Below, in pieces: positions 1 through 17,857 of a DNA stretch of 22,257 nucleotides; the first letter of the stretch is position 1, and each line of letters begins with the position of its first letter. Source of the DNA: an uncultured bacterium (GTDB taxonomy: Bacteria > Electryoneota > AABM5-125-24 > Hatepunaeales > Hatepunaeaceae); the NCBI GenBank assembly GCA_964471745.1, contig CAYYHI010000034.1:1-22257 (forward strand), read 5' to 3'. Both the position numbers and the translations under genes were made by a program. Below the pieces are notes generated by a model. It saw nothing but the letters and a program-made list of their open reading frames with translations, was not told where the DNA came from and ran no database searches.

Positions 1-157
1 CCCTGTCAATATAGATCCATACATCTTTAGCATCGGCATCCCAAGAGTTTGATATTGCTTCACCTAAAACAGTCATGAAGCTTCTGTACAGATTCCTCCC
101 AAGGTGATTTAAAACGCTGAGAGAGATGGCAAATGTAAATTTTTCATTGTTAGACAT
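1..157 (-). CDS. Hypothetical protein, 5' portion only; the gene runs off the left edge. The visible N-terminus is MSNNEKFTFAISLSVLNHLGRNLYRSFMTVLGEAISNSWDADAKDVWIYIDR. It may be a restriction-endonuclease partner of the upstream C5-methyltransferase.
   Basis: An open frame on the minus strand starts at ATG 157..155. That ATG overlaps the last codons and stop of the upstream methyltransferase gene (ATGTCTAA overlap), which implies translational coupling. It is absent from the ORF track because no stop lies in the window. No recognisable motif is present in the 52 visible residues. Confidence 0.4.
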   Translation of the reverse strand, partial: MSNNEKFTFAISLSVLNHLGRNLYRSFMTVLGEAISNSWDADAKDVWIYIDR

Positions 158-1244
158 TGTATTCCCTCACATGATTTTTTATACTTCTTGCAATTACTTT
201 TCCAAGTTTGACTGGAACTGCATTTCCAATTAACTTTCCTATTCGTTCAGTGGATATCTGTTTGCCCGATTCTATAAAGTCGTATTCAATTGGAAACGTC
301 TGTAAAAGTGCTCCTTCTCTCAAGGAAATAGCTCGATCCTGTTCAGGATGTCCGAAACGACCATTTCCAAAACCAAAGAATTGAGTGGTGATCGTGGGTG
401 CAGGTTTATCCCACTCCATACGACCATAAACGCTTACGTAAGTCCTGCAGGTAGGTTTCTTGTGGCAATCGGCTATGAGATCCTCCGACCATTGTCTCCA
501 AGTCCCTCCGGGTTTGGACTGCCGAATTCGTCGTAAGTTTTTATCAGAAAGGTTTCGCGATCTATGCAACGGATCAATACTTGATATTTCTCCTGCAGAT
601 AATGGTTCTAAATCCTTTATCCAGTCACGAACCGTCGTATATTCGGTGGGTTTATGAGTGGGTTCTATTAAATCTAATGAGCCGAAAAGGGATGCGAAGA
701 GAACTAATCTTCTACGCGTTTGAGGTATTCCATATTCTCGACAATCAACGATAAAAGTCGTTACGTGATAACCTTCTTTAATTAGTCCTTCAATGAAATC
801 TTCATACACCTGGTGTTTGGTTAGAAGAGACACGTTCTCCATACTGACAATTTCAGGTTTAAGCTCACTAATTATACGAGAGAACGAATATAAAAGCCCC
901 CATTTAGCATCGTTTCTGTTTTCGTATCCTTGTGTATAAGCTGAAAACGGCTGGCATGGAGCACAACCTACTAAAATTTTCAGGTCGTTTTTGGTATAGA
1001 GACCTGCGATATCATCTCCAGATAATTCGGAAACATCTTTAAGCAGAAACTCGCATTTGTTGTTTTGTTCATAAGAATAACGACAATCGGGATCTATATC
1101 TATACCGGCATTAACTGCGATTCCCTCTTGTTGAAATCCGTATGTTAGACCACCGACTCCACAAAATAGGTCAACTGCAGAGGCATTTACAACGAATGGT
1201 CGATCCGAGTAATTATTACTCATAGTTAACAACATCTTATTCAA
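150..1244 (-). CDS. dcm: DNA (cytosine-5)-methyltransferase (Dcm-like C5-MTase)
   Basis: C5-MTase motifs are present: I DLFCGVGG, IV GCAPCQPFS (catalytic PCQ), VI ENV, VIII QTRRR, X GNAVPV. Its length (~360 aa) is typical. The ORF-track start at 1244 is a TTG. The first ATG is at 1235, 1 nt after the vsr stop. Confidence 0.9.
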   Translation of the reverse strand: MNKMLLTMSNNYSDRPFVVNASAVDLFCGVGGLTYGFQQEGIAVNAGIDIDPDCRYSYEQNNKCEFLLKDVSELSGDDIAGLYTKNDLKILVGCAPCQPFSAYTQGYENRNDAKWGLLYSFSRIISELKPEIVSMENVSLLTKHQVYEDFIEGLIKEGYHVTTFIVDCREYGIPQTRRRLVLFASLFGSLDLIEPTHKPTEYTTVRDWIKDLEPLSAGEISSIDPLHRSRNLSDKNLRRIRQSKPGGTWRQWSEDLIADCHKKPTCRTYVSVYGRMEWDKPAPTITTQFFGFGNGRFGHPEQDRAISLREGALLQTFPIEYDFIESGKQISTERIGKLIGNAVPVKLGKVIARSIKNHVREYNV

Positions 1245-1650
1245 CTGTCAAGCTCTTAAGTTTCTTGAGCTTTTCATTTACCAACCCTTTTTTAATCTCA
1301 CATTCCCATATCCTTATCACTTGCCAGCCTTTAGATATTAATACAGTGTCAACTTTACAGTCCCGCTCCTTATTACGCTTAATTTTCTTTTCCCAGAACT
1401 CGTGATTTGTTGCAGGCTTCGTGTTCCGACAATCATGACCATGCCAAAAACAACCGTCAGCGAATACCGCTATCTTGGCTCTTAGAAAAACAAAATCTGG
1501 ACTACCTGGTGCAGAATAGTTACGTCGCCACCCCTTTATTCTGTGTTCCCTGAACAAATCGATAAGTTTCATTTCTGTTGATTTATTTCGCTTCCCTCGA
1601 TTTGCTCTCATAATCTGTGAGCGTTTTTCCTGTGAAAAGGAGTCTGTCAT
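1237..1650 (-). CDS. vsr: Very-short-patch repair endonuclease Vsr
   Basis: Carries the Vsr signature FADGCFWHGHDC, in a ~137 aa protein with a basic N-terminus. It is tightly linked or overlapping with the C5-MTase gene, the classical dcm/vsr association. Here vsr sits upstream. Confidence 0.88.
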   Translation of the reverse strand: MTDSFSQEKRSQIMRANRGKRNKSTEMKLIDLFREHRIKGWRRNYSAPGSPDFVFLRAKIAVFADGCFWHGHDCRNTKPATNHEFWEKKIKRNKERDCKVDTVLISKGWQVIRIWECEIKKGLVNEKLKKLKSLTVE

Positions 1651-4090: not shown

Positions 4091-4136
4091 TTTAGAGACG
4101 GGTACGGAGCCCAGTCCTCCTGAAGTTGACAGTCCA

Positions 4137-5726
4137 TTAGTCAAATATCTTCTCTTGGTTATCTGATTTATTTACGAATTTGGGAGCTCCCAATAGTCCT
4201 CCTCCAGGAGGAATCTTAAAGCAATCCGGATCACTTAGCAGTTGCGGGATTGTTAAAATCTGCATCCGAGGATAATCCCGGTTCATAACCTCCGAATGAT
4301 AAAATCCGGCTGAGGACGCTTCCGAAATCATCCCCGCAGTTGGCGGTTCGAGAGTTATGAATGCGCTCATTTCAGCCTTTTCCCTCTCCATTACGCCCTT
4401 GAGGTCGCGTATCTGGGATGGGTTCACGGTCCCGGATTTCACTTGAATGATGCATTTGGCGTACGTTCGCCGAGGACCGTGTATAAAACTCCTGTAGCCA
4501 TCGATACCCCGGTCAGCGCCCTTTTTCTTTTCACCCCACGGTCGAGCGTTGATTAACCCCAATGCCCAATATTGGAACTGGTATCGGTTCTCCCTTGCCA
4601 AAGCTCTCGCCTCTTCCACGGTTGTCGGTTCACCGATTACATCGTAGGACTGGCGATCCATACCGAACCTGGAGTATAGCCGGAATTTAATCAGGTCGAT
4701 CGCCAAGTGAGTTACATCGATCCCGATCCATTGACGCGGTGGAAGCTCCGGATTCTCTTTATTAAGAGTCTCAACTGCATCGATTGTTGTGCCGCAGCCG
4801 CAGAAGGGATCGAGGATTATATCACCTGATTTGGATGCCGAATTAACTACCCTGTGTAAGAGCTCCAACGGTTTTTGTGTTTGGTAACCGAGTCTTTCCT
4901 TAGCCTGTGAATTAATAAAATCGATCTCCCAAACGTCGGGCGCAGTAGTTAATCGGGTTTCTGCTTCGACGATCCTTGCATAATCTTTGAGATTTATCCT
5001 TCCCCGCGCTACGGCTTCTTCAACCTTCCCTTTATCATAGATGATTAACTGTGGCTTTCTCACGCCATCAATTGGTACTGTATTTCGATCCCAGCCTCTT
5101 TCGTGCTTCTTAATTTGTCCGGATGTTGGTTTAATATAAGTCCTGTTGATTTGATGTTGCATATCCTTCGCATAAAACAGGATATTATCATGCATCCTTT
5201 GGAAGTGCTTCGATTTTGCAGTCCACCGCCTGTAATACCATATTATATCATTTCGGAATAGCTTCGGTCCAAATATCGCATCCAAGACAAGCTTGAGGTA
5301 ATGACTGGCGGTCGGATCGCAATGCAGATATAACGAACCGGTCGGCTTCAATATCCGGTGCAATTCAACCAGTCTGACAGCCATCTGGACTAAATACGCA
5401 TACATGGGCGAATGACAGAGGAAGCTCTCCAGCATATTTAACAGAGCAACCAACGGCTGTGGTGTATAGTCAATTACGCTGTTTATCTCATATAAAGCCT
5501 TCGCGGCGTTCTCATCCCACCTCCATGTATCCTCAAACGCCTTGATCTGAGCCGATGAGGGTGTTCCTTCCTCGTCCTTAAACAGAACGTTGTAGCTCTG
5601 ATTGGAGTTAAATGGCGGATCAAGGTAGATCAGGTCGACCGATTCCGATGGAAAGAAATCCCTGTCTCTGAGGAATTTGAGGTTATCACCGAAATATAAA
5701 CGATTGGTGGGGATCATACAACACAT
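4137..5726 (-). CDS. Beta-class DNA amino-methyltransferase (N6-A/N4-C; DPPF...FCGCG) fused to a C-terminal Mrr-type PD-(D/E)XK restriction-endonuclease-like domain (paralog A)
   Basis: Motif IV DLIYLDPPF comes before motif I ILDPFCGCGTT, the beta permutation. PTGSLYLHCDP is also present. The C-terminus has YWALGLINARPWG..RGIDGY..CIIQVKSG..IRDLKGVM..AFITLEPPT, matching the Mrr catalytic-domain hallmarks (GIDG, QxK, FxTt). The likely real start is the conserved MIPTNRLYF at 5717. Confidence 0.8.
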   Translation of the reverse strand: MCCMIPTNRLYFGDNLKFLRDRDFFPSESVDLIYLDPPFNSNQSYNVLFKDEEGTPSSAQIKAFEDTWRWDENAAKALYEINSVIDYTPQPLVALLNMLESFLCHSPMYAYLVQMAVRLVELHRILKPTGSLYLHCDPTASHYLKLVLDAIFGPKLFRNDIIWYYRRWTAKSKHFQRMHDNILFYAKDMQHQINRTYIKPTSGQIKKHERGWDRNTVPIDGVRKPQLIIYDKGKVEEAVARGRINLKDYARIVEAETRLTTAPDVWEIDFINSQAKERLGYQTQKPLELLHRVVNSASKSGDIILDPFCGCGTTIDAVETLNKENPELPPRQWIGIDVTHLAIDLIKFRLYSRFGMDRQSYDVIGEPTTVEEARALARENRYQFQYWALGLINARPWGEKKKGADRGIDGYRSFIHGPRRTYAKCIIQVKSGTVNPSQIRDLKGVMEREKAEMSAFITLEPPTAGMISEASSAGFYHSEVMNRDYPRMQILTIPQLLSDPDCFKIPPGGGLLGAPKFVNKSDNQEKIFD

Positions 5727-5841: not shown

Positions 5842-7380
5842 TCAATCAAACATCTTATTTTGAGAATCATCCCGCTTCTTAAATTTTGGTGCCGAGGCTA
5901 ATTGTCCACCTGGAGGAATCTTAAAAATATCCGGATCCTTAAATAATTCTTTGATTGTTAGTATCTGCAAACGCGGATAATCCTTGTTCATCACCTCGGA
6001 ATGATAAAACCCAGTTGCAGCAGACTCCGTTATCATCTCTTTAGTTGGCTTCTCAAGAGTAATGAAAACACCAAGTTTTGCATTTACTCTTTCCATAGTC
6101 CCTTTTAAATCCCTTATCATACTGGGATTAACTTTACCAGATTTTACCTGAACTATACATTTTTCGTATTTTCGCTTGGCACCGTGTAGGAAGTATCTAT
6201 ATCCATCTATTCCTCTATCGGGTTTTCCCCACGGACGTGCCCCAATTAAACCGAGAGCCCAATATTCGAATTGTTTACGATTCTCAAGCGCCAAGGCTTT
6301 AGCTTCCTCTAAGGTAGTTGGTTCCCCTATAACATCATAATAGTTTCTATCGATACCGAATCGTGTCATAAGACGGTTCTTCATAAGATCAATCGCCAGA
6401 TGTGTGATGTCGATGCCGATCCACTTGCGAGGCGGTTTGTCGGGAGTTTCCTGATTTAATGTCTCTACAGCGTCAATTGTCGTTCCGCATCCGCAGAAGG
6501 GATCAAGGATCATATCGCCGGGATTTGAGCCGATAGTTATTATCCTTCTTAGAAGTCGAACAGGTTTTTGGGTATCATAACCCAATGATTCTTTTTCACC
6601 ACTGGTGAGTTTTTCAATATTGAATAAATCATCCAACGGACGCCCGTATGCCATTGCGTCTTCAATATAGCGTTTGATTCTCTTTCCCTTTCCAGCATCG
6701 GAAAGAACGTATTCCCTTCCATCTTTATCTACATGGATTTTTTGCTTCCTAACTTTTATATATTCCTCCTTTGATTCCCATTCGGCTGTCGGGTAGTTAA
6801 AGGTAAATCTCAATTTCTTTCTATATAGAAATATAGTATCATGTCGGGATTCAATCCTGGATTTCAGCTTTTTATTCCATCCTGAATAATGCCAAACTAT
6901 ATCATTTCTGAAATTCTTCGGTCCGAAAATGCCATCTAATAATAATTTTAAATAGTGACTCGCCGTCGGATCGCAGTGCAGGAATAGCGAGCCAGTAGGC
7001 TTCAGAATCCTATGCATCTCGACCAATCTCACCCCCATCTGCACCAGGTAAGCATACATCGGTGAATGTTTCAGGAATTCTTCCAGCATATTGATCAAAG
7101 CGACAAGCGGTTGGGGAGTGTAGTCAATAACCGTATTCATTTCATGCAGCGCTTTTGCAGCAGATTCATCCCAGCGCCACGTGTCCTCGAAAGCCTTAAC
7201 CTGTGCCGTTGAGGGCGTCCCCTCAGCTTCTTTGTACAGAACGTTATAGCTCTGATTGGAATTGAACGGCGGATCAAGGTAGATCAGGTCGACCGATTCC
7301 GATGGGAAGAAATCCCTGTCCCTGAGGAATTTAAGGTTGTCACCGAAATATAGGCGGTTGGTGGGGATCATATACAACAT
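5842..7380 (-). CDS. Beta-class DNA amino-methyltransferase fused to a C-terminal Mrr-type nuclease domain (paralog B; the central target-recognition region differs from A)
   Basis: Has the same motifs as paralog A (DLIYLDPPF, ILDPFCGCGTT, DRGIDGY, CIVQVKSG, VFITLEKPT). The N-terminal ~160 aa and the C-terminal nuclease domain are highly similar to A. The region between motif IV and motif I is strongly diverged. Confidence 0.8.
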   Translation of the reverse strand: MLYMIPTNRLYFGDNLKFLRDRDFFPSESVDLIYLDPPFNSNQSYNVLYKEAEGTPSTAQVKAFEDTWRWDESAAKALHEMNTVIDYTPQPLVALINMLEEFLKHSPMYAYLVQMGVRLVEMHRILKPTGSLFLHCDPTASHYLKLLLDGIFGPKNFRNDIVWHYSGWNKKLKSRIESRHDTIFLYRKKLRFTFNYPTAEWESKEEYIKVRKQKIHVDKDGREYVLSDAGKGKRIKRYIEDAMAYGRPLDDLFNIEKLTSGEKESLGYDTQKPVRLLRRIITIGSNPGDMILDPFCGCGTTIDAVETLNQETPDKPPRKWIGIDITHLAIDLMKNRLMTRFGIDRNYYDVIGEPTTLEEAKALALENRKQFEYWALGLIGARPWGKPDRGIDGYRYFLHGAKRKYEKCIVQVKSGKVNPSMIRDLKGTMERVNAKLGVFITLEKPTKEMITESAATGFYHSEVMNKDYPRLQILTIKELFKDPDIFKIPPGGQLASAPKFKKRDDSQNKMFD

Positions 7381-7746: not shown

Positions 7747-10086
7747 TTACTTATTTATTATCTCCCAGATCCTTTCCTTCGCTTCAGCGAGCTCCATACT
7801 CTCGGTGTTGACGATATAAAGCGGAACAGCATCCAGCAGTCTATTCCACTGGCGGCGCAGCAGATCCATGCGCGCGGCGTCGCTAACCAGGAGATACGGA
7901 TTGTAGAACGGAACCGAGAACCACCGTCCGTGCGACATCGAATAACCGCCCTCTTCGATTATGCGCAGCGCGGCGTCAGTTGACGGTTTGTCTACCTTCG
8001 GCGCCATGGTGTCCCTCTTCAGCAGGATTATGGAGCTTAGCAGCGTCCGCTTGATATGCCTGGCTGAACCGCCGATCCAGTATGGGTCGAGTATGGCGAA
8101 TGAATTGCGCGATCCCTCATAGCAGCAGGCTGCGCCCTGTTCGAGTGGGCATTCGCTGCTGACCAGATGCTTTTCTGCCTGGCAATCGTCCGACTTCGTG
8201 ACGACGTTCTCCAGCTTGGATCGGTCGAATAAGGGCATCAACTCCGGAAGCTTTCCTGCCAGGTTGGTATGTATCAGGAACTTACGCTCAACCGAATCGG
8301 CGATCGGCGAACCTCCAGCCTGACGGACGAAGAACCCGTCGTAGCTGTGCAATCGGGCTTCCTGACGGCGCATCAGACCGGCGAAATGAGTCGAACCACC
8401 TGTCCCCGGCGGCGCAATCAGGGCAACGCCCCGACCGTTGACATCAAAGCACGAGCCGACAACAAGGTGCATGTCGAACGTGCGCGAGGCGATGTCATCG
8501 ACAATACCCAACGTCATGGCACGCAACTGCGGATAGAAGGCGGTGTTGAACGTCAAACCGGTACGTGTCTGAGAGTTATAGAAAACGCGCGCTTCCCGTC
8601 CCGGCGCATCCTTGACACCGTACAGCAAACCGTGAGGTTCGAGATCCGACTCGATTGGCGATGGATACCAGTTCTCCGTCCAGAAGTCGATGAGATGCGG
8701 TGAGTTCGTCATCATCTTCACTACAACACCGCCGATGTTGGCGCACCATTCGTGATAGCGGTCGTATGTCATTGCTGCTTCAGCCTCAGAAACGAGCGCG
8801 TCGCGCATCTCTATTTCGATAGCTGTTTCCAGTTCGGAATAATCCTTGATCTTGGTCACTGTGTTGTTTAACGCCCGCCGCTTGGCTTTGGTAGTCGGTT
8901 TCAGCCATGCCAGCGCCTCGGTTACCCTGTCCAGCGCAATAGCCAGATTCTCCTGCGATGTCGCATACGAGAAGCGGATGAAATTGTCCGCACCGAACGC
9001 ATCACCGGGTACGAGCGCTACGTGGGCGTGCTTCAGAAGGTAGTATGCCAGTCCGCTGGAATTGCGTATCGGTACGCCTTCGAACTGCTTGTCGTAGTAC
9101 CACGAGAAATTCGGGAAGGCATAGAACGCGCCCTCAGGCTTGTTGCAGGATACGTGCGGCATGCCGTTCAGCTTATAGATCACGAAGTTACGCCGTGCTT
9201 CGAACTCCTGGCGCATCCGAACGATTTCGTGCTGCGGTCCGGTCAGCGCTTCCACGCCCGCCCACTGCGCGACCGAATTGGGATTGGAGGTGGCGTGCGA
9301 CTGTACCTTGGACATGCCCTGAATCAGTTCCAGAGGTCCCACTGCATAGCCGAGTCGCCAGCCGGTCATCGCGTAGGATTTCGAGAAGCCGCAGACAATG
9401 ATCGACTTGCTTCTGACCTTCTCGCCAAATGCAGCGACCGATTTCATCTCGAATCCGTCGTAAACGAGCTTTTCGTAAATCTCATCGGCGATGATAAACA
9501 AGCCTTCATCCATACAGACGTCGATAAGCTTCAGCAACTGATCCGGGTTATAGGCAGCGCCGGTGGGGTTGCACGGGTTGTTGAGGATAATGGCTTTGGT
9601 TCGGGCAGATAAGGCACGTCCCAGGTCTTCGGTTGTCAGCCGGAAACCGTTTTCCTCGCGTGTATTGACGTAGATCGGCACTCCCTTGGCGAGGTTCACC
9701 ATGTGCGGATATGACACCCAGTATGGCACCGGCACAATGACCTCGTCGCCCTTGTTCAGCAACGCGGTGCAGGCGTTGAACAGGCACTGCTTGCCACCCG
9801 TAGAGACGATCACCTCGCCCGGTTTGTAATCTGCACTGCATTCATCGCTGTACTTGCGGGCGATGGCTTCGCGCAGCTCCAGAATGCCGGTGTTGTCGGT
9901 GTATTTCGTATAGTTCTTGTCGAGAGCCGCTTTCGCCGCGTTCTTAATGTTCTCCGGCGTGGGAAAATCAGGCTCACCGACGGAAAGGTTTATGACATCG
10001 ATCCCTTCGCGCCGCATCTGCTGCGCCTTGGAGCTGATGCGCAAGGTCGACGAAAAGCCTATGCGTTGTACTCGGTCTGATAACAT
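7747..10086 (-). CDS. Fusion protein: N-terminal aspartate/aromatic aminotransferase (PLP fold type I), joined to a C-terminal ~380-aa extension containing an HprK-C/PEPCK-like domain with a degenerate P-loop.
   Basis: AspAT hallmarks are present in the first ~400 aa: SVGEPDF, NNPCNPTG, the PLP-lysine block FSKSYAMTGWRLGY, and RFSYA. The C-terminal part has GRGVALIAPPGTGGSTHFAGLMRRQEARLHSYDGFFV. This resembles the HPr-kinase C-domain G-x-GVLI-G-SG-GKSE..L...G..LV-DD but lacks the Walker-A Lys. It is one uninterrupted 779-codon frame. Confidence 0.7.
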   Translation of the reverse strand: MLSDRVQRIGFSSTLRISSKAQQMRREGIDVINLSVGEPDFPTPENIKNAAKAALDKNYTKYTDNTGILELREAIARKYSDECSADYKPGEVIVSTGGKQCLFNACTALLNKGDEVIVPVPYWVSYPHMVNLAKGVPIYVNTREENGFRLTTEDLGRALSARTKAIILNNPCNPTGAAYNPDQLLKLIDVCMDEGLFIIADEIYEKLVYDGFEMKSVAAFGEKVRSKSIIVCGFSKSYAMTGWRLGYAVGPLELIQGMSKVQSHATSNPNSVAQWAGVEALTGPQHEIVRMRQEFEARRNFVIYKLNGMPHVSCNKPEGAFYAFPNFSWYYDKQFEGVPIRNSSGLAYYLLKHAHVALVPGDAFGADNFIRFSYATSQENLAIALDRVTEALAWLKPTTKAKRRALNNTVTKIKDYSELETAIEIEMRDALVSEAEAAMTYDRYHEWCANIGGVVVKMMTNSPHLIDFWTENWYPSPIESDLEPHGLLYGVKDAPGREARVFYNSQTRTGLTFNTAFYPQLRAMTLGIVDDIASRTFDMHLVVGSCFDVNGRGVALIAPPGTGGSTHFAGLMRRQEARLHSYDGFFVRQAGGSPIADSVERKFLIHTNLAGKLPELMPLFDRSKLENVVTKSDDCQAEKHLVSSECPLEQGAACCYEGSRNSFAILDPYWIGGSARHIKRTLLSSIILLKRDTMAPKVDKPSTDAALRIIEEGGYSMSHGRWFSVPFYNPYLLVSDAARMDLLRRQWNRLLDAVPLYIVNTESMELAEAKERIWEIINK

Positions 10087-10183: not shown

Positions 10184-10345
10184 TTAATGGTTGATTTTAT
10201 TAGAATTAAACATCAAATCAATATCACTCTCAAATTCCTCCTCCCCCCGAGCCACCGAACCGAACAGAGCCAGGCGTTTGACCTTGAGCTCTTTTAACTT
10301 GTTACGGTGCTCAATGAGAAGGTTGAGTATATTGGAGCGAATCAT
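10184..10345 (-). pseudogene. Truncated MntA-like nucleotidyltransferase (53 aa N-terminal fragment: [53 protein letters not shown])
   Basis: Contains the GSxxRG and DxD minimal-NTase motifs but stops after ~53 aa. It lies 7 nt downstream of hepT. Confidence 0.55.
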
Positions 10346-10352
10346 AGGTGTT

Positions 10353-10733
10353 TCAATCCATCCAATATTCGGTGACTATCTTATCCAACTTTTCGCGCAG
10401 TAAGGGAACATCATCGGTAATGGTTGTCCAGACCCGGTTCAAATCAATCCTGTAGTAGGCATGTATCAGGCGGTTGCGCATCCCGATGATGTCCTCCCAT
10501 GGAATGTCGGAGAATTCACGCCGGACTTCGGGCGAGACCTTGGAAGCTGCCTCACCGATCAACTCAATGGCTTTCACAACCCCAAGCTCCAACAGGCGAT
10601 CTTTATCCAAATCCCGGCGCGTCTTGCTTTGAGTGAACTGTTCCACATCCCTCGCGGCATCCAGCATGTGCCGCAGCCGGATGAAGTCATCCTTGTGCAT
10701 ACTGCACCTGCGCCGATGAAATAACATCATCAC
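10353..10733 (-). CDS. hepT: HepT-family HEPN toxin (DUF86) of a MntA/HepT type VII toxin-antitoxin pair
   Basis: Carries the R-x4-HxY motif (MRNRLIHAY). The likely start is the internal Met at 10700, which gives a 14-nt overlap with mntA. Confidence 0.8.
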
Positions 10734-10986
10734 GGAAATATGGACTTAGGTCGTCCGGTGTCCGAAGGTCAACCTTGCGCCCAAGTATCGCCGACAGTTC
10801 CCGCTCCATTGCCGCCATCCGGAGAAGTCCCACTACCGCTTCGGGTTCAAACTCCACCAGCACGTCAATATCGGAGTCCGGGTGGAATTCCTCCCGAAGC
10901 ACCGACCCGAAGAGTGCCAGTCGTCGGATGCGATGCTTGACGCAGAAGGACTTGATCGCGCGTTTGTCTATGTTGAGCTTGCCCAT
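10687..10986 (-). CDS. mntA: MntA-family minimal nucleotidyltransferase antitoxin
   Basis: Contains [24 protein letters not shown] (GS..R...x..SDxD). It is ~99 aa and sits immediately upstream of hepT. Confidence 0.8.
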
Positions 10987-11003
10987 TTTACTTTATGTTT
11001 GTA

Positions 11004-11130
11004 TCACAACTTCTCGCGCGACGCCGAGTCTAAGAGCGCCAGGCGTTTGACCTTGAGCTCTTTTAACTTGTCGTGGTTTTTGGTTAGAAGTTGTAAAATA
11101 TCTTCACGAGTCAAAACATTTCTCCCTAAA
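11004..11130 (-). pseudogene. Second MntA-like N-terminal remnant (...LTREDILQLLTKNHDKLKELKVKRLALLDSASREKL*)
   Basis: Shares an exact 34-nt stretch (GCCAGGCGTTTGACCTTGAGCTCTTTTAACTTGT, encoding KLKELKVKRLAL) with the fragment at 10184-10345. The GS motif is lost and a stop follows. Its start is unclear. Confidence 0.4.
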
Positions 11131-11132
11131 AG

Positions 11133-11714
11133 TTAATAGACAATATCTTCAAAATTTATTCCATCTCCTCTAAATTTTTCAATTATTTTGTCATAGGAAA
11201 ATTTCAGGCTTCCAGGCCATAACAAAGGAGCATTTACACTCCCTATTGGTCCCCAGCTCCAACCTCCAGAAGTAAACCCCCCTTGTAAGTAAAGAAATTC
11301 GTGAATTAGATCTCCATCAAAAACGTTATCTTTATCGTTAAAGGATTTCTTAAAACTATCAGCGTCCTCTAGACTTAAATCTACATAAAGGGTTCTAAGA
11401 GATAACATAATCGGTGTCCATCCAGGCCTGGAGTCGCCCCAGACATCCTCTATGCGATAGAGGGAAACGTTCCTTTCCACTTTAGGTTTTAAGTCAACAA
11501 TTAGAGCACTATTTTCTACTGATTGTCCAAGTATCAATAAAATATTTTGCTCGGATAAGTGCCATTTTATACCAGAATCTTTAGGTGCTAGTCCCAAACT
11601 TTGAACATAAGTTGCTATAGGACCTTTTCTGCCAGCAAGTGAGACTTTTTTCAAATAGCTGTAGGTTGATAATTCGCCAGCTTTTTGTTTAACATTGTAA
11701 ATTATGAAAGGCAT
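11133..11714 (-). CDS. Hypothetical protein (193 aa), in an AT-rich segment
   Basis: A long ORF on the same strand as the toxin-antitoxin array, with a plausible SD (AGGAGGTAAAC) upstream of the ATG. There are no recognisable motifs. GC is markedly lower than in flanking genes. Confidence 0.5.
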   Translation of the reverse strand: MPFIIYNVKQKAGELSTYSYLKKVSLAGRKGPIATYVQSLGLAPKDSGIKWHLSEQNILLILGQSVENSALIVDLKPKVERNVSLYRIEDVWGDSRPGWTPIMLSLRTLYVDLSLEDADSFKKSFNDKDNVFDGDLIHEFLYLQGGFTSGGWSWGPIGSVNAPLLWPGSLKFSYDKIIEKFRGDGINFEDIVY

Positions 11715-11764
11715 GTTTACCTCCTCTTAATTGGCATTTGGTAAATTATGCGTTTATTTATAGT

Positions 11765-11826
11765 ACCCTCACCCCATTCTTGACCACCCATCCCGCGAAG
11801 CTGGCGGGGCTGGGGTTGTGGGGGGC
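11765..11826. repeat. Imperfect-palindromic C/G-rich REP-like element (copy 1)
   Basis: ACCCTCACCCCATTCTTGACCACCCATCCCGCGAAGCTGGCGGGGCTGGGGTTGTGGGGGG. It is closely related to 12432-12486. Confidence 0.6.
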
Positions 11827-11875
11827 TCATAGAAGGGTACAGTGCCACGCCCTCATTCCTTAACCCAACTATTCC

Positions 11876-12100
11876 TCATGCAGTAGCTATTCTTTCCAAC
11901 GTAACTTCCTCAAACGCCTGAATAATCAGTTGGCGTATGTCGGTTTTTTCAGATGCGTCAAGAATTTCGATTGCAACCACATTACCATCATGGTCATAAT
12001 CGACGATCATGTCCTGGTTGATTTCGTCTGAGTTGCCGATCTCGGTCTCCCTCAAACGAATATACAGCGCATCCGCTTCTTTCGAATAACGAATTCTCAT
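11876..12100 (-). CDS. DUF2283-family protein (putative antitoxin partner of DUF4258)
   Basis: YSKEADALYIRL signature (YDxEaDaLYI). 74 aa. Lies 2 nt downstream of the DUF4258 gene. Confidence 0.65.
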   Translation of the reverse strand: MRIRYSKEADALYIRLRETEIGNSDEINQDMIVDYDHDGNVVAIEILDASEKTDIRQLIIQAFEEVTLERIATA

Positions 12101-12102
12101 TT

Positions 12103-12348
12103 TTATTTTCCTTTCAAGTACTTCCAGATCCTATTAGTGGGATAGACAGTGATCAGTTTCTTATTTTCTGTGACTAAGCGTATCAATTTATTACCAATCA
12201 GTTTCTGGTAAATGAGGCGGTTCCTTTTACCGATTACAATATCATCGGGATTCACAAGAACATCATGAATTAACTCACGTGGTATCTTTCTCTCTTTCAA
12301 TTGTTGAACAATATGATCCGTCCAAATCCATTCTTTCAGCTTTTTCAT
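12103..12348 (-). CDS. DUF4258-family protein (putative toxin)
   Basis: TDHIVQQLKERKIPRELIHDVL and ...KLITVY match the DUF4258 pattern. 81 aa. Confidence 0.6.
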   Translation of the reverse strand: MKKLKEWIWTDHIVQQLKERKIPRELIHDVLVNPDDIVIGKRNRLIYQKLIGNKLIRLVTENKKLITVYPTNRIWKYLKGK

Positions 12349-12424
12349 TTAAGATCCAACGAAAATTGCCTGAAGAAGCCAATTTATATGAAATTAGACA
12401 GATACGGAGCCCCGTCCTCCTGTT

Positions 12425-12748
12425 TTAAGCAACCCTCACCCCATTCCTCACCACCCATCCGGCAAAACATGCGGGGCTGGGATTGGGCAGTTCAGCAGCG
12501 TCAAAGAAGTGGAGGTCAATGTCGTCGCCCTCTGCTTCCTTAACCCGGCAGCTTGTTTTCACCTGTTTCATCAGCGTCCATTTACTGAAGTTATCTACAA
12601 AAAGAGCGATGTCCAGATCGCTGTATTCGTCTGAACTACCATCCACTTGCGACCCGAAAATATAAACGGCATTGATATTGGTCTTGCTGCCAAGTAGTTT
12701 AATTACTTGGTTTACCCGCAATGTCAGTAAAGATTTGTCAACAACCAT
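12425..12748 (-). CDS. Minimal nucleotidyltransferase (MNT) of a HEPN/MNT pair
   Basis: YIFGSQVDGSSDEYSDLDIALFV. The 3' end of the ORF runs into REP-like repeat copy 2. Confidence 0.75.
   Translation of the reverse strand: MVVDKSLLTLRVNQVIKLLGSKTNINAVYIFGSQVDGSSDEYSDLDIALFVDNFSKWTLMKQVKTSCRVKEAEGDDIDLHFFDAAELPNPSPACFAGWVVRNGVRVA
12432..12486. repeat. REP-like palindromic element (copy 2)
   Basis: ACCCTCACCCCATTCCTCACCACCCATCCGGCAAAACATGCGGGGCTGGGATTGG. It is preceded by TACGGAGCCCCGTCCTCCTG, which also occurs at 4103-4122. Confidence 0.6.
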
Positions 12749-12832
12749 CCGTATAACTCCTTGGTTGCTTTCAAGTATTTTTCAGTGGTTTGTCTGGTCA
12801 GCTTCAAATCAATCTGAAGCGGATACCTGGTT

Positions 12833-13114
12833 CTAACATAGATAATCGGATAGTTCCCGCAGGAGGGAGACCTGAGTAGCTTCCAAGTCAAGCCCAGCTT
12901 TCTCGATTAATGTCACGAGATTGTGAATACGTGGCGCAAGCTCCCCACTATCCTTTATAATTAAGGCTTTAATGAGTTTCTCCAGTGCCTGTTGACAGCA
13001 GAACAAGACATAGAGGTAGCGTCTTGCAACTTGCATAGCTTCTGCAGTCTTCAAGTCATATTCGGCTTTCTCAAGCCATCGTTTGACTTCCTTACTGTCC
13101 AATCCTGCCTGCAT
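12833..13114 (-). CDS. HEPN-domain protein (partner of the downstream MNT)
   Basis: QQALEKLIKALIIK...RIHNLVTL, the HEPN QAvEKalKA / HdL pattern. The start is chosen at the Met at 13114, 2 nt after the stop of the upstream OMP-like gene. Confidence 0.75.
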   Translation of the reverse strand: MQAGLDSKEVKRWLEKAEYDLKTAEAMQVARRYLYVLFCCQQALEKLIKALIIKDSGELAPRIHNLVTLIEKAGLDLEATQVSLLRELSDYLC

Positions 13115-13116
13115 TC

Positions 13117-13722
13117 TTAAAACCTCACACCAACGATGAGTGGCACCGTGATGGGCATCGTGGCTGACCCGAAAGGCGAAACACGCCAATTAATCTCCGC
13201 GAAAAACGCCAGATTGTCGCTGATTTCCAGATCGGCGCCGAAACCCATTCCAAATGAGGCACCATTCGGTACGCCAATCCCACAAAAGAACTTAAATACG
13301 GGCATGAAGGGTGTCCTTCGAAGTCCACCGTAGTCGCTGAAGCGCAAGGTGACATCGAGCCCTGCTTCATGATAGTAAACGTCAGGCTCAGATTTGTAAC
13401 CGACCATGCACGGCACAACATAAGGAGGGCAGGGATTAGCTTCACGGTTGTTTAGTCTGTATCCATCGGGCACAATGACCAGACGAGGCTCCACTGCCAG
13501 AGCTAAGGTATTCTTTATTACACTACCAAAACCAGCCGAGAACAGGTAACCTTTGGTTGCATAATCATCGTCACCATCACGGGAATGTGGATAAACAACC
13601 ACACCGCTGTTTACCATCCGGAATGACTGGGCTTCCGTAAGTTCAGGGATCGTGGATAATAGACATACCAGTAGCAATAACTTGAGCGATTGAAACAATC
13701 GAAATCTCATATTGCGAGACAT
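13117..13722 (-). CDS. Putative small outer-membrane beta-barrel protein (signal peptide, alternating amphipathic strands, C-terminal ...VRF)
   Basis: N-terminal signal (LKLLLLVCLLSTIPELTEA). Ends in an aromatic residue (F), as typical for OMPs. No specific family was recognised. Confidence 0.4.
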   Translation of the reverse strand: MSRNMRFRLFQSLKLLLLVCLLSTIPELTEAQSFRMVNSGVVVYPHSRDGDDDYATKGYLFSAGFGSVIKNTLALAVEPRLVIVPDGYRLNNREANPCPPYVVPCMVGYKSEPDVYYHEAGLDVTLRFSDYGGLRRTPFMPVFKFFCGIGVPNGASFGMGFGADLEISDNLAFFAEINWRVSPFGSATMPITVPLIVGVRF

Positions 13723-13729
13723 CAGAAAG

Positions 13730-13942
13730 TTATTTCACTGAATCCCACTCAGTTTCTGAAATTCCAGCTACTTTTAGGATTCGCTTAAGTAAACCTATAG
13801 AAATATCCTTGCTGTGCGGATTTGTGATGCTGATATAGAGTTCGCCTCTTCTCATATGAGGATGCTTTCCACCTGGTCTTGGTCCTTCAAATCCCAAAGC
13901 CCTTAAACGTCTTATCAGTTCCCGTCTCGAAACAGGCTTCAC
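13730..13942 (-). CDS. hicA: HicA mRNA-interferase toxin
   Basis: RELIRRLRALGF...GGKHPHM...NPHSKDISIGLLKRILKVAGI matches HicA (YcfA-like). 70 aa. Confidence 0.8.
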   Translation of the reverse strand: MKPVSRRELIRRLRALGFEGPRPGGKHPHMRRGELYISITNPHSKDISIGLLKRILKVAGISETEWDSVK

Positions 13943-14202
13943 TTAAAATCAGCAACAGTTTTGGGATTTTCTGCAACCGTTATACCATCGATTTCAGGCA
14001 CGGGAACATTGTCACGAATGTGAGCCCATATCCAGTCTTCGATGACTTCTGCGAGCGTACCCCGACACTCTTCCAAAGTCCTTCCCTCCGACCACACACC
14101 TTTGAGCCCCGGGACTGAACCAAAATAAAGGTCATCCTCGTCGATAAACTCATAATGTGCTTTACGCAGTGCGGCTTGAATATATTCTATGATCATCAGC
14201 AA
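13939..14202 (-). CDS. hicB: HicB antitoxin
   Basis: YFGSVPGLKGVWSEGRTLEEC (UPF0150/HicB N-domain pattern). 4-nt overlap with hicA. Confidence 0.72.
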   Translation of the reverse strand: MLMIIEYIQAALRKAHYEFIDEDDLYFGSVPGLKGVWSEGRTLEECRGTLAEVIEDWIWAHIRDNVPVPEIDGITVAENPKTVADFK

Positions 14203-14310: not shown

Positions 14311-15765
14311 CTATTCGTCCTTTAGCCCGGTCTCTTTGCTCTCATCTTTGTTGAGGGCTTTACTGGCAAACTTCTTCAAATCAATCCCTGACAACGCCTG
14401 AACGACTTCCGGCAGTTGAGCCAGTATCTCTGCGACCTGTCGTGTCAGGTGCGTCGCGCCGGATTTACCGTCGCCGCCGTCGATGACCACCATTTTGTCG
14501 ATGCGGGACATCGGCTCGGAAATCGCCTTTGCCAGTTCGGGCAGCTTGTCCATAATCATCTGGTATACAGCCGCCTCGTTATATGACTTGAAAGCGTCCG
14601 CTTTGGCTGCCATCGCATCCGCTTCAGACTCACCCATCTTTCGAGTGTATTCGATGTGGCTGATACCGGCGGCTTTCTTGACCTCGACATCGGCTAATCC
14701 CTCAGACTTCTGTGCTGAGGCGCGTCCCTCGGCTTCGGAAGCCAGCCGGAACTTCTCTGCAGTGGCTTCGGTCTCAACCTGGAACTTGCGCGCTTCAGCC
14801 GGGCGCTTCACGGACGATTCGAGCTCCAACTCACGCCGCTTGATCTCCTGCTCTTCGACCTTGATAGCTGCTTCCTTTTCGACAAAACGCGTCTGATACT
14901 CAGCCTTCTTCAGACTGGCAGCCTGTTTGTGACGTTCGAGTTCGTAGGCAGCATCTGACTGGGCCTTGCGGGTGTTGGTATCGATCTGGAAGCCTGTTTT
15001 CTTCAGTTCGAAATCGTGACCGGCTTTGGCAATTTCAGTCTCAACCTGGAAGCGGACAATGTCGCCCTCCTTGCGTGCTTCTGCAGACTTGATAATCGTA
15101 TCTTTATCGGTTTCAGCTTCAGCAACTGCTGCATCCCGCTTGACTTGAGAAATGCGCGGTTGTCCCAGTGCGTTGAGGTAGCCCTGAGTGTCGGATATAT
15201 CACCGAGATTGAAGGACAACAGTTCCAGACCCATCCGTTCGAAGTCTTCCTGGGCGTTCTTTCTGACATCTTCAGCGAAATCATCACGGTTCTGGAAAAT
15301 CTCCTCAGGTGTCATTGAGCCGATTGTCGAACGTGCATAGCCTTCCAGGATATGTCCGGCGACTTCTTTGATACCGGTTGAACCCCGACCGAGGAATTGC
15401 TCGGCTGCCCGGCGGATAGCACCTTGATTCGAAGCTACCTTGACCTGTGCCAATGCCTCGGCGATTATTTGTACACCTTGTTTTGTAAGTACTTCAGGGA
15501 TTCTAATCTGAATGGTGTAGGTTTCAAGAGGCAAAACCTGCGCCGTTTCACGAAACGGCATGACGAAGGCGCCGCCGCCGATAACCATCCGGTAACCGAC
15601 CTTGATACGTTGACCTTCCTCTTCGATGATTCGCTTGCGCCCGCCGGATATGATCAGTACTTCGTTGGGTCCGACCTTCCGGTATTGCTTTGCCTGGGCA
15701 AGGATTAACAGACCAATAACTACAACTACAACGCCGATTATGATGAGCAGTGTTACCGTACTCAT
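14311..15765 (-). CDS. Flotillin-like SPFH/band-7 domain membrane protein
   Basis: N-terminal TM helix, SPFH core, and a long EA-rich coiled-coil with a C-terminal flotillin-like region. The start is set at the Met at 15765, which has an AAGAGGG SD. The ORF track extends to 15816. Confidence 0.75.
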   Translation of the reverse strand: MSTVTLLIIIGVVVVVIGLLILAQAKQYRKVGPNEVLIISGGRKRIIEEEGQRIKVGYRMVIGGGAFVMPFRETAQVLPLETYTIQIRIPEVLTKQGVQIIAEALAQVKVASNQGAIRRAAEQFLGRGSTGIKEVAGHILEGYARSTIGSMTPEEIFQNRDDFAEDVRKNAQEDFERMGLELLSFNLGDISDTQGYLNALGQPRISQVKRDAAVAEAETDKDTIIKSAEARKEGDIVRFQVETEIAKAGHDFELKKTGFQIDTNTRKAQSDAAYELERHKQAASLKKAEYQTRFVEKEAAIKVEEQEIKRRELELESSVKRPAEARKFQVETEATAEKFRLASEAEGRASAQKSEGLADVEVKKAAGISHIEYTRKMGESEADAMAAKADAFKSYNEAAVYQMIMDKLPELAKAISEPMSRIDKMVVIDGGDGKSGATHLTRQVAEILAQLPEVVQALSGIDLKKFASKALNKDESKETGLKDE

Positions 15766-15844
15766 ATTAGCCCTCTTAAATATCTTTGAATGAAAAATTC
15801 TGTAGTATTGATGCACAGATAATTAATGCAGCAGATAAATATAT

Positions 15845-15991: not shown

Positions 15992-17857
15992 ATGAGCAGT
16001 ATATATGATGAAGCGGCATACCGTCAGTTCGCCCAGAACCTGCCGCATGCACTATCAGGTAAGAATATCAAGCATATAAAGCTTGATAAGTTACGTAAAC
16101 CGTCAATAGAGACCGGCACGCCAACCAAGTTTGGTTCCTGGGGATGGCGGTCGGCAGTTTCGAGTCGCATAGGTCCCAAGACTGTTTACCTTGGATCTGA
16201 ACCAGTGCTTCTCCCAAAACCAACTGACTTGCATAAGAGCATTATCGCCGTCGCTCCGGACGAGTTGCACAAGGTTCTTCAGCTTTGCCGCACGCTGCCG
16301 ATGGTGCATATACGCCGCCGCATGGGGGAGAATAGCGAATACAATCCGATCTGTAATCTGTACATATCCGTCGCTGATCATAAGAACTACCGCCTGGCTT
16401 ACATGTGGGGGAGCACGATGGGCGATCCGGATAAAGGCTTGCCCGGACCGGAGTTCACCATGATACACATTCCGGAAGAACACGTCCTGCGCCAGCAGGT
16501 GCTTCACCTTCCCGAATACCATATCAACATCGCCCTTGGTACGGATTATATGGGTGAGAATAAAAAGGGCTTTCTTCGTCAGTCGATGTGGTACGCGGAC
16601 GAACACGGCATGCTCGGGCTTCATGCCGGTACGAAGATGGTGACGGTTCGAGATACCAATGACAGCAAACTGAAGAAGTACGGCGTGCTTCTCTTCGGAT
16701 TGTCAGCCACCGGTAAATCCACCTGGTCATGCCACCAACTCGGCTTGAACGAAAAAGATGGCGAGAAAACCGAAACCATTCAGGATGATATTGTATTTCT
16801 TAAGAGTGACGGCTCGGCGCTCGGTTCGGAACAGAACTTCTTCGTTAAGACCGATGTCGACGCCAAACTCCAGGAAGCGATGTTCTGGTCGCTGACCGAT
16901 AAAACGGCGCTGTACGAAAACGTGATGATCGACTCCGACGGTAATCCGGATTTCCTGGATGAGAGCCTCTGTGCCAACGGACGTGCCGTCATTCGCAAAG
17001 ATAAATTGCGCGTAAGGCGCGGCAGGAAGCTGGTCAGAATAGATTACGACGGTCTGAACCTGCCGACTCTTGATAAGCTGGACGGTTTATGCTTTGCGTT
17101 CATAACCCGGCGCAACACAATGATGACTTTCGCGCAGGAGTTAACCCCTGAGCAGGCAGTTCTTGCCTATCTATGGGGGGAATCATCGCACAGCTTTGCC
17201 TCGGAGCCGGCAAAGGCGGGTGAGTCGGTAAGGACAGTCGGCACCGATCCCTTTATCGTCGGTTCACGGGCGCGCAAGGTCAACCGTTTCCGCGATATCA
17301 TCATGGGATTGTGTGAACGCTACCCGGGCAAGGTTCGATTTTTCCAGTACAACACCGGCGGCATCGGTGAGATCATTGAAATTAAGGAAACACCTGAAGG
17401 CAGGAAGAAAAACATGGTGCGTAAGGTCAAACGGGTGCCTATCCCACTGATGGCGGCTATCCAAAAGGGTGACCTGCGTATGACGAACAGATACGAGAAG
17501 GGCAGACTGGGAACGAAGGAGATCGTAGCGGTGGAGGGGTCAGATCTTAGTGAATATGACCCGAAAAAGTACTATGACGAGGCACAGATAAACTCCTATA
17601 TCGAAGAGATCGTTGACGGCAGGCGGAAATTTACTGAGATGATCAGTTCGGAAGGGCTTGACCGCGAGATCATCAAGTGGGCTGAGAAGTCTTATGAGAT
17701 ATCGAGAGCGGCTGAGAAAGAAGTCTGGCAGGTTGGAGTTCCGAAAGAACCGGAGAAAGCTGAGAAGCTCGATCTTATGATGCCTGTCGGGGTTGGCAGC
17801 AACGACGGGGAATCGATCTACCGACCGCCGCGTTCGCTCGGCTGGAGGATTAAGTAG
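15992..17857 (+). CDS. ATP-dependent phosphoenolpyruvate carboxykinase-like protein (atypical, 621 aa)
   Basis: Blocks match the PckA family. GTDYMGENKKGFL ~ GGTWYGGEMKKGMFS. Kinase-1a LLFGLSATGKST ~ FFGLSGTGKTT. IQDDIVFLKSDG ~ IGDDEHGWDDDG. NGRAVI ~ NTRVSYP. The N- and C-terminal regions are divergent or extended. Confidence 0.7.
   Translation: MSSIYDEAAYRQFAQNLPHALSGKNIKHIKLDKLRKPSIETGTPTKFGSWGWRSAVSSRIGPKTVYLGSEPVLLPKPTDLHKSIIAVAPDELHKVLQLCRTLPMVHIRRRMGENSEYNPICNLYISVADHKNYRLAYMWGSTMGDPDKGLPGPEFTMIHIPEEHVLRQQVLHLPEYHINIALGTDYMGENKKGFLRQSMWYADEHGMLGLHAGTKMVTVRDTNDSKLKKYGVLLFGLSATGKSTWSCHQLGLNEKDGEKTETIQDDIVFLKSDGSALGSEQNFFVKTDVDAKLQEAMFWSLTDKTALYENVMIDSDGNPDFLDESLCANGRAVIRKDKLRVRRGRKLVRIDYDGLNLPTLDKLDGLCFAFITRRNTMMTFAQELTPEQAVLAYLWGESSHSFASEPAKAGESVRTVGTDPFIVGSRARKVNRFRDIIMGLCERYPGKVRFFQYNTGGIGEIIEIKETPEGRKKNMVRKVKRVPIPLMAAIQKGDLRMTNRYEKGRLGTKEIVAVEGSDLSEYDPKKYYDEAQINSYIEEIVDGRRKFTEMISSEGLDREIIKWAEKSYEISRAAEKEVWQVGVPKEPEKAEKLDLMMPVGVGSNDGESIYRPPRSLGWRIK

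Follow-up and report, generated by a model that had tools for sequence, protein, structure and literature searches.

Toxin-antitoxin (TA) modules of different families are known to form genomic "islands", and their preferential incorporation into particular regions has been suggested (Makarova et al. 2009; PMC2701414). In Photorhabdus, TA systems share small, high-turnover intervals between core genes, in which toxins are pseudogenized first and DNA remnants persist (Belot et al. 2026; PMC13617665). Here we analyze an array of small genes at positions 10184-14202 of contig CAYYHI010000034.1 from an uncultured bacterium; the whole contig, of 22257 nt, is referred to as the window. We consider it roughly 80% probable that the region is an eroding, TA-rich genomic spot of fast turnover between two conserved, co-oriented core genes. 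As in the published islands and spots, a few kilobases between core genes hold several pairs from different families, turnover between relatives is high, and toxins are pseudogenized first and leave remnants. The window differs from them in its host, which belongs to an uncultured lineage (with one relative bearing the label Calditrichaeota) and is no proteobacterium, in an unusually tight packing (2-18 nt), and in the partial duplicates of antitoxin-gene ends that bracket its modules. An earlier sequence-only reading had offered a TA island as one of two interpretations, and at least three TA families in 4 kb, a hypervariable interval, and a mosaic G+C content speak for it; the idea is right and already known, the locus being another example, in an uncultured lineage.

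The interval between the flotillin and aminotransferase-fusion genes measures approximately 4.2 kb and is filled by TA genes and broken remnants. Every open reading frame (ORF) in 10184-14202 is on the minus strand, in the same direction as the flanking genes. The boundaries, TA genes, and remnants are as follows.

14311..15816, minus strand: flotillin/SPFH gene (Pfam Band_7), the conserved upstream boundary, with orthologues flanking the interval in relatives
13939..14202, minus strand: hicB-type antitoxin gene, UPF0150-like, 87 aa (Pfam PF21748, 94.9 bits)
13730..13942, minus strand: hicA toxin gene, 70 aa, GTG start (Pfam PF07927, 46.6 bits, cut-off 27)
12724..13114, minus strand: HEPN toxin pseudogene (Pfam HEPN, 59.7 bits, positions 1-81 of 117 only)
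12425..12748, minus strand: MNT nucleotidyltransferase antitoxin gene, 107 aa (Pfam Polbeta/NTP_transf_2), its last ~20 codons being repeat copy 2
12103..12348, minus strand: DUF4258 gene, 81 aa, predicted RelE/barnase-like toxin (Pfam PF14076, 31.7 bits, cut-off 25)
11876..12100, minus strand: DUF2283 gene, 74 aa, predicted antitoxin partner (Pfam PF10049, 65.1 bits, above its cut-off)
11758..11826, minus strand: remnant, 3' end of a second MNT gene (repeat copy 1), ~20 codons and stop
11004..11114, minus strand: MntA N-terminal fragment B (direct repeat D1), 36 codons, its GS motif degenerate
10687..10986, minus strand: mntA antitoxin gene (mntA2), 99 aa (Pfam NTP_transf_2, 60.9 bits), GSx10DxD motif, G+C 0.56
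10353..10700, minus strand: hepT RNase toxin gene (hepT2; Pfam HepT-like, 89.8 bits), in which RNRLIH is the Rx4H motif
10184..10345, minus strand: MntA N-terminal fragment A, 53 codons (Pfam NTP_transf_2, E = 5.6e-8)
7747..10086, minus strand: 779-aa aminotransferase-fusion gene (Pfam Aminotran_1_2), the conserved downstream boundary, found in 45 related loci

The tight spacing described by the sequence-only reading, with gaps mostly of no more than 10 nt, holds for seven of the 11 gene junctions in the array, which overlap or leave 10 nt or less; the remaining four measure 17, 18, 76, and 161 nt. Per-gene G+C content is a mosaic, at 0.35-0.56 in the array versus 0.53-0.56 in the flanking genes, and a promoter/terminator scan found no enrichment relative to shuffled sequences.

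Four pairs lie within 4.0 kb: HicBA, HEPN-MNT, DUF4258-DUF2283, and MntA-HepT. Such pairs of different families, a variable interval between core genes, and signs of erosion (the HEPN frameshift and three MNT-family gene fragments) are together what characterizes a TA island. The sequence-only reading had listed four TA modules plus remnants, all on the minus strand; Pfam matches back this gene content, with the correction that the HEPN toxin gene is frameshifted. The gene for a HicA double-stranded-RNA-binding-domain (dsRBD)-like toxin adjoins that for HicB, as is diagnostic of HicAB systems, and the order is hicB then hicA with an overlap of 4 nt; no DNA-binding domain was detected in the HicB protein, which is short at 87 aa, and a homologue 71% identical to it lies in the same interval of a related locus (L050; see below). 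DUF4258 also has a weak match to PBECR3. As in type VII HepT/MntA systems, mntA precedes and overlaps hepT (by 14 nt), the GSx10DxD and Rx4H motifs are both present in adjoining genes, and the Pfam scores exceed their cut-offs. The NCBIfam scores, 48.9 bits for MntA and 34.6 bits for HepT, fall below the equivalog cut-off of 60, so the assignment holds at the family level only. The second module of this kind departs further from described HepT/MntA and HEPN/MNT systems in that HEPN precedes MNT and is frameshifted, and three extra MNT-family fragments are present. The intact modules presumably act as ordinary TA pairs, judging from their families, with the RNase toxins HicA and HepT, a putative RelE/barnase-like DUF4258 toxin, and cognate antitoxins.

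Erosion is most evident in the HEPN gene, whose ORF (13114-12833) ends early, after 93 codons, while the C-terminal ~38 codons continue in another frame to 12724. By alignment with the homologue in L053, the frameshift is a 1-nt insertion at 12844-12845 (GATTATC versus GATATC), and the region is identical in L001, an independent Logan assembly of run SRR9705735. Fragment A is 53-60% identical to the intact MntA at the same position in L005, L006, L007, and L009-L011, and on this evidence is read as the eroded remnant of an mntA-hepT module that lies directly upstream of the aminotransferase gene in relatives. Fragment B has no Pfam match; it forms direct repeat D1 with positions 10241-10332 in fragment A (73% identity over 92 nt, with a 34-nt identical core), and its junction with mntA2 is the same in L007.

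The variability of the interval emerges from 57 related loci that we set beside the window and labelled with L-numbers, 48 of them from one genome scan and one metagenome scan and nine from an exact-protein look-up. In nine distant relatives (L018, L019, L023, L026, L027, L028, L034, L041, and L042), in which the aminotransferase is 49-55% identical, the flotillin and aminotransferase genes are 30-260 nt apart; the two genes would therefore have been adjacent originally, and we take this adjacency for the ancestral state. From there the interval extends to more than 5 kb (from ~30 nt), with differing contents in more than ten related loci. It measures ~150 nt and holds no gene in L022, a single DUF2784 gene in L008, and DUF2784 with two hypothetical genes and no TA module in L003. 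In L050-L052 it holds DUF2784, MNT (78%), HicB-like (71%), and UvrD helicase genes, the MNT protein of L050 being the one with the Calditrichaeota label. The interval of L053 contains HEPN-MNT, mntA2 beside a hepT2 with an internal deletion, a chimeric MNT/HicB remnant, and a zeta toxin gene; that of L005/L006 contains an MntA fragment, a zeta-like gene, and mntA-hepT; and that of L015, at 5.4 kb, contains lipoprotein and outer-membrane-protein (OMP)-like genes, a transposase-like gene, and MntA. All of the interval cargo in relatives is co-oriented with the flanking genes. The synteny comparison proposed by the sequence-only reading thus finds modules variably present, and the identical gene content across relatives that it had named as refuting its proposal is not what we observe.

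Individual modules can be followed through successive states of decay. The resident mntA-hepT module is intact in L005, L006, and L009, has lost hepT in L007, and is reduced to a 53-codon fragment in the window and L013. L053 retains a HEPN gene that is intact at least C-terminally, the window a frameshifted one, and L050 none. The hepT2 gene is intact in the window, appears as two tblastn segments in L007 (consistent with a frameshift), and is internally deleted in L053. HicB occurs with HicA in the window, alone in L050, and as a C-terminal scrap in L053. A chimeric scar at L053 950-1130 joins ~15 codons from the start of hepT2 to ~8 from its end and continues with 12 codons of the MNT 3' end fused in frame to ~30 codons of the HicB C-terminus.

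These comparisons suggest a history in which addiction modules would have been gained repeatedly (hicBA, HEPN-MNT, DUF4258-DUF2283, and two generations of mntA-hepT) and would then have eroded, toxins first and antitoxins next, with gene-end fragments staying behind. New modules may enter by recombination within or beside resident MNT-family antitoxin genes, an insertion that would leave partial duplicates of the antitoxin-gene end on both sides of the insert. As long as the toxin is active, only events that restore the antitoxin would presumably be viable. Ordinary as a TA island, the locus extends to an uncultured lineage the picture of TA modules that accumulate and decay in small, permissive stretches between core genes, and it is of value as a clean natural series, in which the same interval runs from empty to a 4-5-kb array with modules at differing stages of decay.

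Several points weigh against the reading of a fast-turnover TA spot. All of the compared sequences are metagenome assemblies of uncultured bacteria. The contig carries no transposase or integrase, in which it also differs from the published islands and spots, and the island has no match in plasmid or phage collections. Two of the 11 genes (encoding 201 and 193 aa) have no known link to TA biology, and DUF4258-DUF2283 is only a predicted TA pair; we found no paper naming both. MNT, HicB, and mntA2 recur in the same interval across relatives, so that part of the pattern may stem from an ancestral array whose modules were lost differentially, and not from modules gained repeatedly.

Assembly artefact as the source of the repeats is rejected: exact shared stretches do not exceed 34 nt, a second, independent assembly agrees at 100% identity, and other metagenomes show the junctions again. 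The assembly is reproducible, in that Logan contigs L001 and L054 are both 100% identical to the window; two short Logan contigs of SRR9705735 overlap the contig, and no others were found. The composite junctions are seen again in other metagenomes (L007, L013, and L056-L058). A plasmid or phage origin of the island was dropped when blastn with the island returned no match in either collection.

The two repeats that had attracted the sequence-only reading as imperfect palindromes following two of the modules (11765-11826 and 12432-12486) prove to be of another nature. They form a direct repeat, D2 (11765-11818 versus 12432-12485), with 85% identity over 54 nt where none is expected by chance, and both strands of both copies fold no better than dinucleotide shuffles (z from -0.08 to +1.2, not significant). 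Copy 2 does not follow a module; it is inside the MNT ORF, as its last ~20 codons. Copy 1, read in the same frame, translates to NPSPASFAGWVVKNGVRVL followed by a stop codon, which makes it a third gene remnant, an MNT 3' end, and the copies differ mostly at synonymous sites. The C-terminus ELPNPSPASFAGWVVRNGVRV is kept in seven of seven MNT family members found among 5.8 billion proteins. Judged by their translations, the two repeats are the MNT 3' coding end and a displaced copy of it, not recombination hairpins. A DNA or RNA element acting at the nucleotide level within the MNT 3' end was rejected, as synonymous sites carry no extra constraint (synonymous-codon identity is 0.67 there versus 0.57-0.69 across the rest of the gene). 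MNT 3' remnants of an equivalent kind occur in L053, L057, and L058. Between the remnants of the window (11758-11826) and L057 (642-700), six of seven changes are at third codon positions; the two share the place of the stop codon and neither is within a conserved ORF, in genomes that are ~80% identical overall. This third-position pattern possibly reflects gene conversion from functional MNT genes or an independent origin.

The alternative that survives best concerns the way in which modules arrive. Tandem accretion at gene ends is known from att-flanked, cis-mobilizable elements and from SXT at the 5' end of prfC. As in these elements, inserts in the window are flanked by partial repeats of a target-gene end and the target gene is regenerated; unlike them, the inserts are small (0.3-0.9 kb), an integrase is lacking, the repeats have diverged (73-89% identity), and the boundaries are imprecise. 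A cassette-like, integrase-independent or trans-mobilized insertion system could be imagined that targets antitoxin-gene ends (mntA 5' and MNT 3') in a site-specific or Campbell-type manner, each module carrying a copy of the gene end, so that insertion restores the antitoxin gene and leaves the displaced end as an att-like repeat. D2 brackets DUF4258-DUF2283, with the MNT 3' end on one side and the remnant on the other, and D1 brackets mntA2-hepT2 between the two MntA N-terminal fragments. A like duplication of ~100 nt, which begins at the MntA start codon and ends shortly after the GSVARG codons, occurs around different cargo in L006 (a zeta-like gene, with a repeat identity of 89%), L007 (mntA2-hepT2), and L015 (a 215-nt spacer); its upstream copy is a truncated fragment and its downstream copy the start of a full-length MntA gene. 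The end-points of the truncated MntA fragments in all loci fall within ~12 nt, just after the GSVARG codons, and in the window and L007 a near-identical tract adjoins this end-point with diverged sequence on either side. In L053, an MNT 3' remnant follows different cargo. The remnants carry the ASFAG codons of cargo-free MNT genes, while MNT genes beside DUF4258 cargo have ACFAG or ANFAG, and the third-position changes and retained stop codon of the window and L057 remnants can be counted on the same side. These bracketing features fit insertions that restore the antitoxin gene, whether Campbell-type, homology-facilitated, or att-like, and the clustering of junctions at the conserved GS motif hints at homology-guided insertion.

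Even so, we regard such a dedicated system as unlikely. No recombinase is present, the repeats are only 73-89% identical, the remnant boundaries of the window and L053 are offset by 15 nt at the left end and 8 nt at the right end, and in L058 the remnant is on the opposite side of the cargo. The composite of MNT, DUF4258, DUF2283, and remnant (its MNT-DUF4258-DUF2283 part is shared with L056, L057, and L058) has been inherited at 77-91% nucleotide identity, so that few independent events stand behind the pattern. Junctions would also be expected to cluster at the GS motif if ordinary homeologous recombination acted at the stretch of highest conservation, and identical scars can result when adjacent paralogous modules are deleted. 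The simpler account of the duplications is ordinary recombination and deletion between paralogous modules. The broader proposition that TA arrays grow here by an integron-free, cassette-like route, at the mntA start-to-GS segment or the last ~20 MNT codons, with addiction filtering for insertions that restore the gene, is equally improbable. If it were true, antitoxin genes would be self-propagating landing pads for further TA modules, and duplications that mark a real insertion mechanism would explain array growth without integrases or transposases.

Considerably less probable is an anti-phage defence island, in which the TA pairs would serve in abortive infection alongside the restriction-modification genes past the aminotransferase gene. 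MntA matches a candidate defence family (PADLOC PDC-S09, E = 3e-27), two methyltransferase-Mrr fusion genes and a C5-methyltransferase/Vsr pair lie 0.4-10 kb downstream, and in L003 and L043, too, the aminotransferase gene has methyltransferase genes downstream. MntA is, however, the only island protein with a PADLOC match, and a pseudogene toxin together with several remnants argues against strong selection for function. TA systems, moreover, seldom cluster with defence systems in the Photorhabdus survey (PMC13617665).

The other interpretation offered by the sequence-only reading was a chromosomal integron array. In this account the locus would be a superintegron cassette array, or an integrase-less cluster of attC sites (CALIN), with attC sites bordering modules that IntI had captured at attI. 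TA cassettes are typical of Vibrio superintegrons, and an attC site is an imperfect palindrome (R''/L''...L'/R') of 55-140 nt at the 3' end of each cassette, of which a CALIN needs at least two. The window resembles superintegrons with TA cassettes in its small, uniformly oriented, largely promoter-less modules (promoter-like sites are unenriched), in content that varies between relatives, and in the presence of two ~54-nt repeats; it is unlike them in having no intI, attI, or attC, in repeats that are MNT coding remnants folding no better than shuffles, and in lying between two core genes that adjoin each other in relatives. That the window holds no intI or attI had already been noted. No contig ORF of at least 100 aa has a Pfam match to Phage_integrase or a recombinase, and tblastn with an IntI1 query gave no match in the window and none next to the interval in the 57 related loci, its sole match being a Xer-like gene ~7 kb away in the distant locus L028. 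A rule-based scan of 10-14.4 kb for RYYYAAC...GTTRRRY pairs, with one mismatch allowed, returned none, versus 3.6 in shuffles. Most gaps, at 2-18 nt, are too short for an attC of ~55 nt or more; only the internal spacers of 76 and 161 nt could hold one by size, and among the spacers and repeats only the 76-nt MNT-to-DUF4258 spacer folds better than shuffles. Rfam over the contig yields a single tRNA-Glu. Neither an intI gene beside the array nor, by the rule-based scan, attC at cassette 3' ends was thus found, the very combination that the sequence-only reading had named as telling against its proposal; an integron is the least probable of the explanations considered, and the integron idea is wrong, being largely refuted.

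The reading of an eroding TA spot leaves three features of the array still to be described.

13117..13722, minus strand: gene for a 201-aa protein, hydrophobic and signal-peptide-like at the N-terminus, with Phe as its C-terminal residue
12396..12422, minus strand: hairpin of ~26 nt, directly past the MNT stop, resembling a dispersed REP-like or terminator-like repeat
11133..11714, minus strand: gene for a 193-aa protein, G+C 0.37, of a widespread family without annotation

The 201-aa protein has no match in Pfam, NCBIfam, PADLOC, PHROGs, or PDB sequences, so that the label "OMP-like" given to it by the sequence-only reading finds no backing in these databases, and it shows no detectable homology to the secreted or OMP-like genes in the same interval of L021 and L015. 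The family of the 193-aa protein comprises 369 cluster representatives at E <= 1e-3. No Pfam match was found in 42 members, and the protein itself has none in NCBIfam, PADLOC, or PHROGs. Its AlphaFold model reaches a mean confidence (pLDDT) of 93.4 with a 42-sequence alignment, as compared with 34 from the single sequence, and has no structural match in PDB or among viral proteins in BFVD.

The hairpin AGGAGGACGGGGCTCCGTACCCGTCC adjoins the stop codons of unrelated genes, in the window those of MNT and of a methyltransferase-Mrr fusion gene, and it looks like a dispersed REP-like (repetitive extragenic palindromic) or terminator-like repeat. The spacer between MNT and DUF4258, with its two small hairpins, folds with z = -3.7 and was flagged as terminator-like. 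Further copies are at window 4095-4122 (minus strand), L015 7976-8001 and 14425-14496, L053 605-624, L056 330-349, L057 45-64, and L058 275-294, and a degenerate copy lies 3' of DUF2283 at window ~11832-11853. The stem shows wobble or compensatory changes between loci, and one of the L015 copies abuts an ORF for a RAYT-like (HUH, Y1) transposase.

Other repeats occur in the interval of relatives. An array of REP-type hairpins, GGACAGGCGGGGACGCCTATCC, with 46-nt spacing, lies at L015 7389-7506 beside a RAYT-like transposase gene within the interval, and REP-type hairpin arrays are also present upstream of MntA in L009, L010, L011, and L024. In the closest genome relative, L002, approximately six tandem copies of the 24-nt unit CGCGGGGATGACGAAGGCTGGAAG lie 3' of the flotillin gene (11560-11720), with a DUF2784-like gene after them.

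Beyond the aminotransferase gene, positions 4137-5726 and 5842-7380 (both minus strand) encode tandem paralogues, almost identical at the N-terminus, in which an N6/N4 DNA methyltransferase is fused to an Mrr-type endonuclease domain. A 71% homologue lies 3' of the aminotransferase gene in L043; this region is a second variable spot, of restriction-modification type. A C5 cytosine methyltransferase gene overlaps a gene for a Vsr very-short-patch repair endonuclease at 150-1650 (minus strand), and tRNA-Glu(CTC) is at 2269-2341. The C-terminal ~390-aa region of the aminotransferase has no Pfam match, and the fusion is conserved in 45 loci. Distant relatives share a gene trio of flotillin, aminotransferase fusion, and PEPCK-like protein, located in the window at 14311-15816 (minus strand), 7747-10086 (minus strand), and 15992-17857 (plus strand); its conservation suggests a possible functional link that has gone unrecognized.

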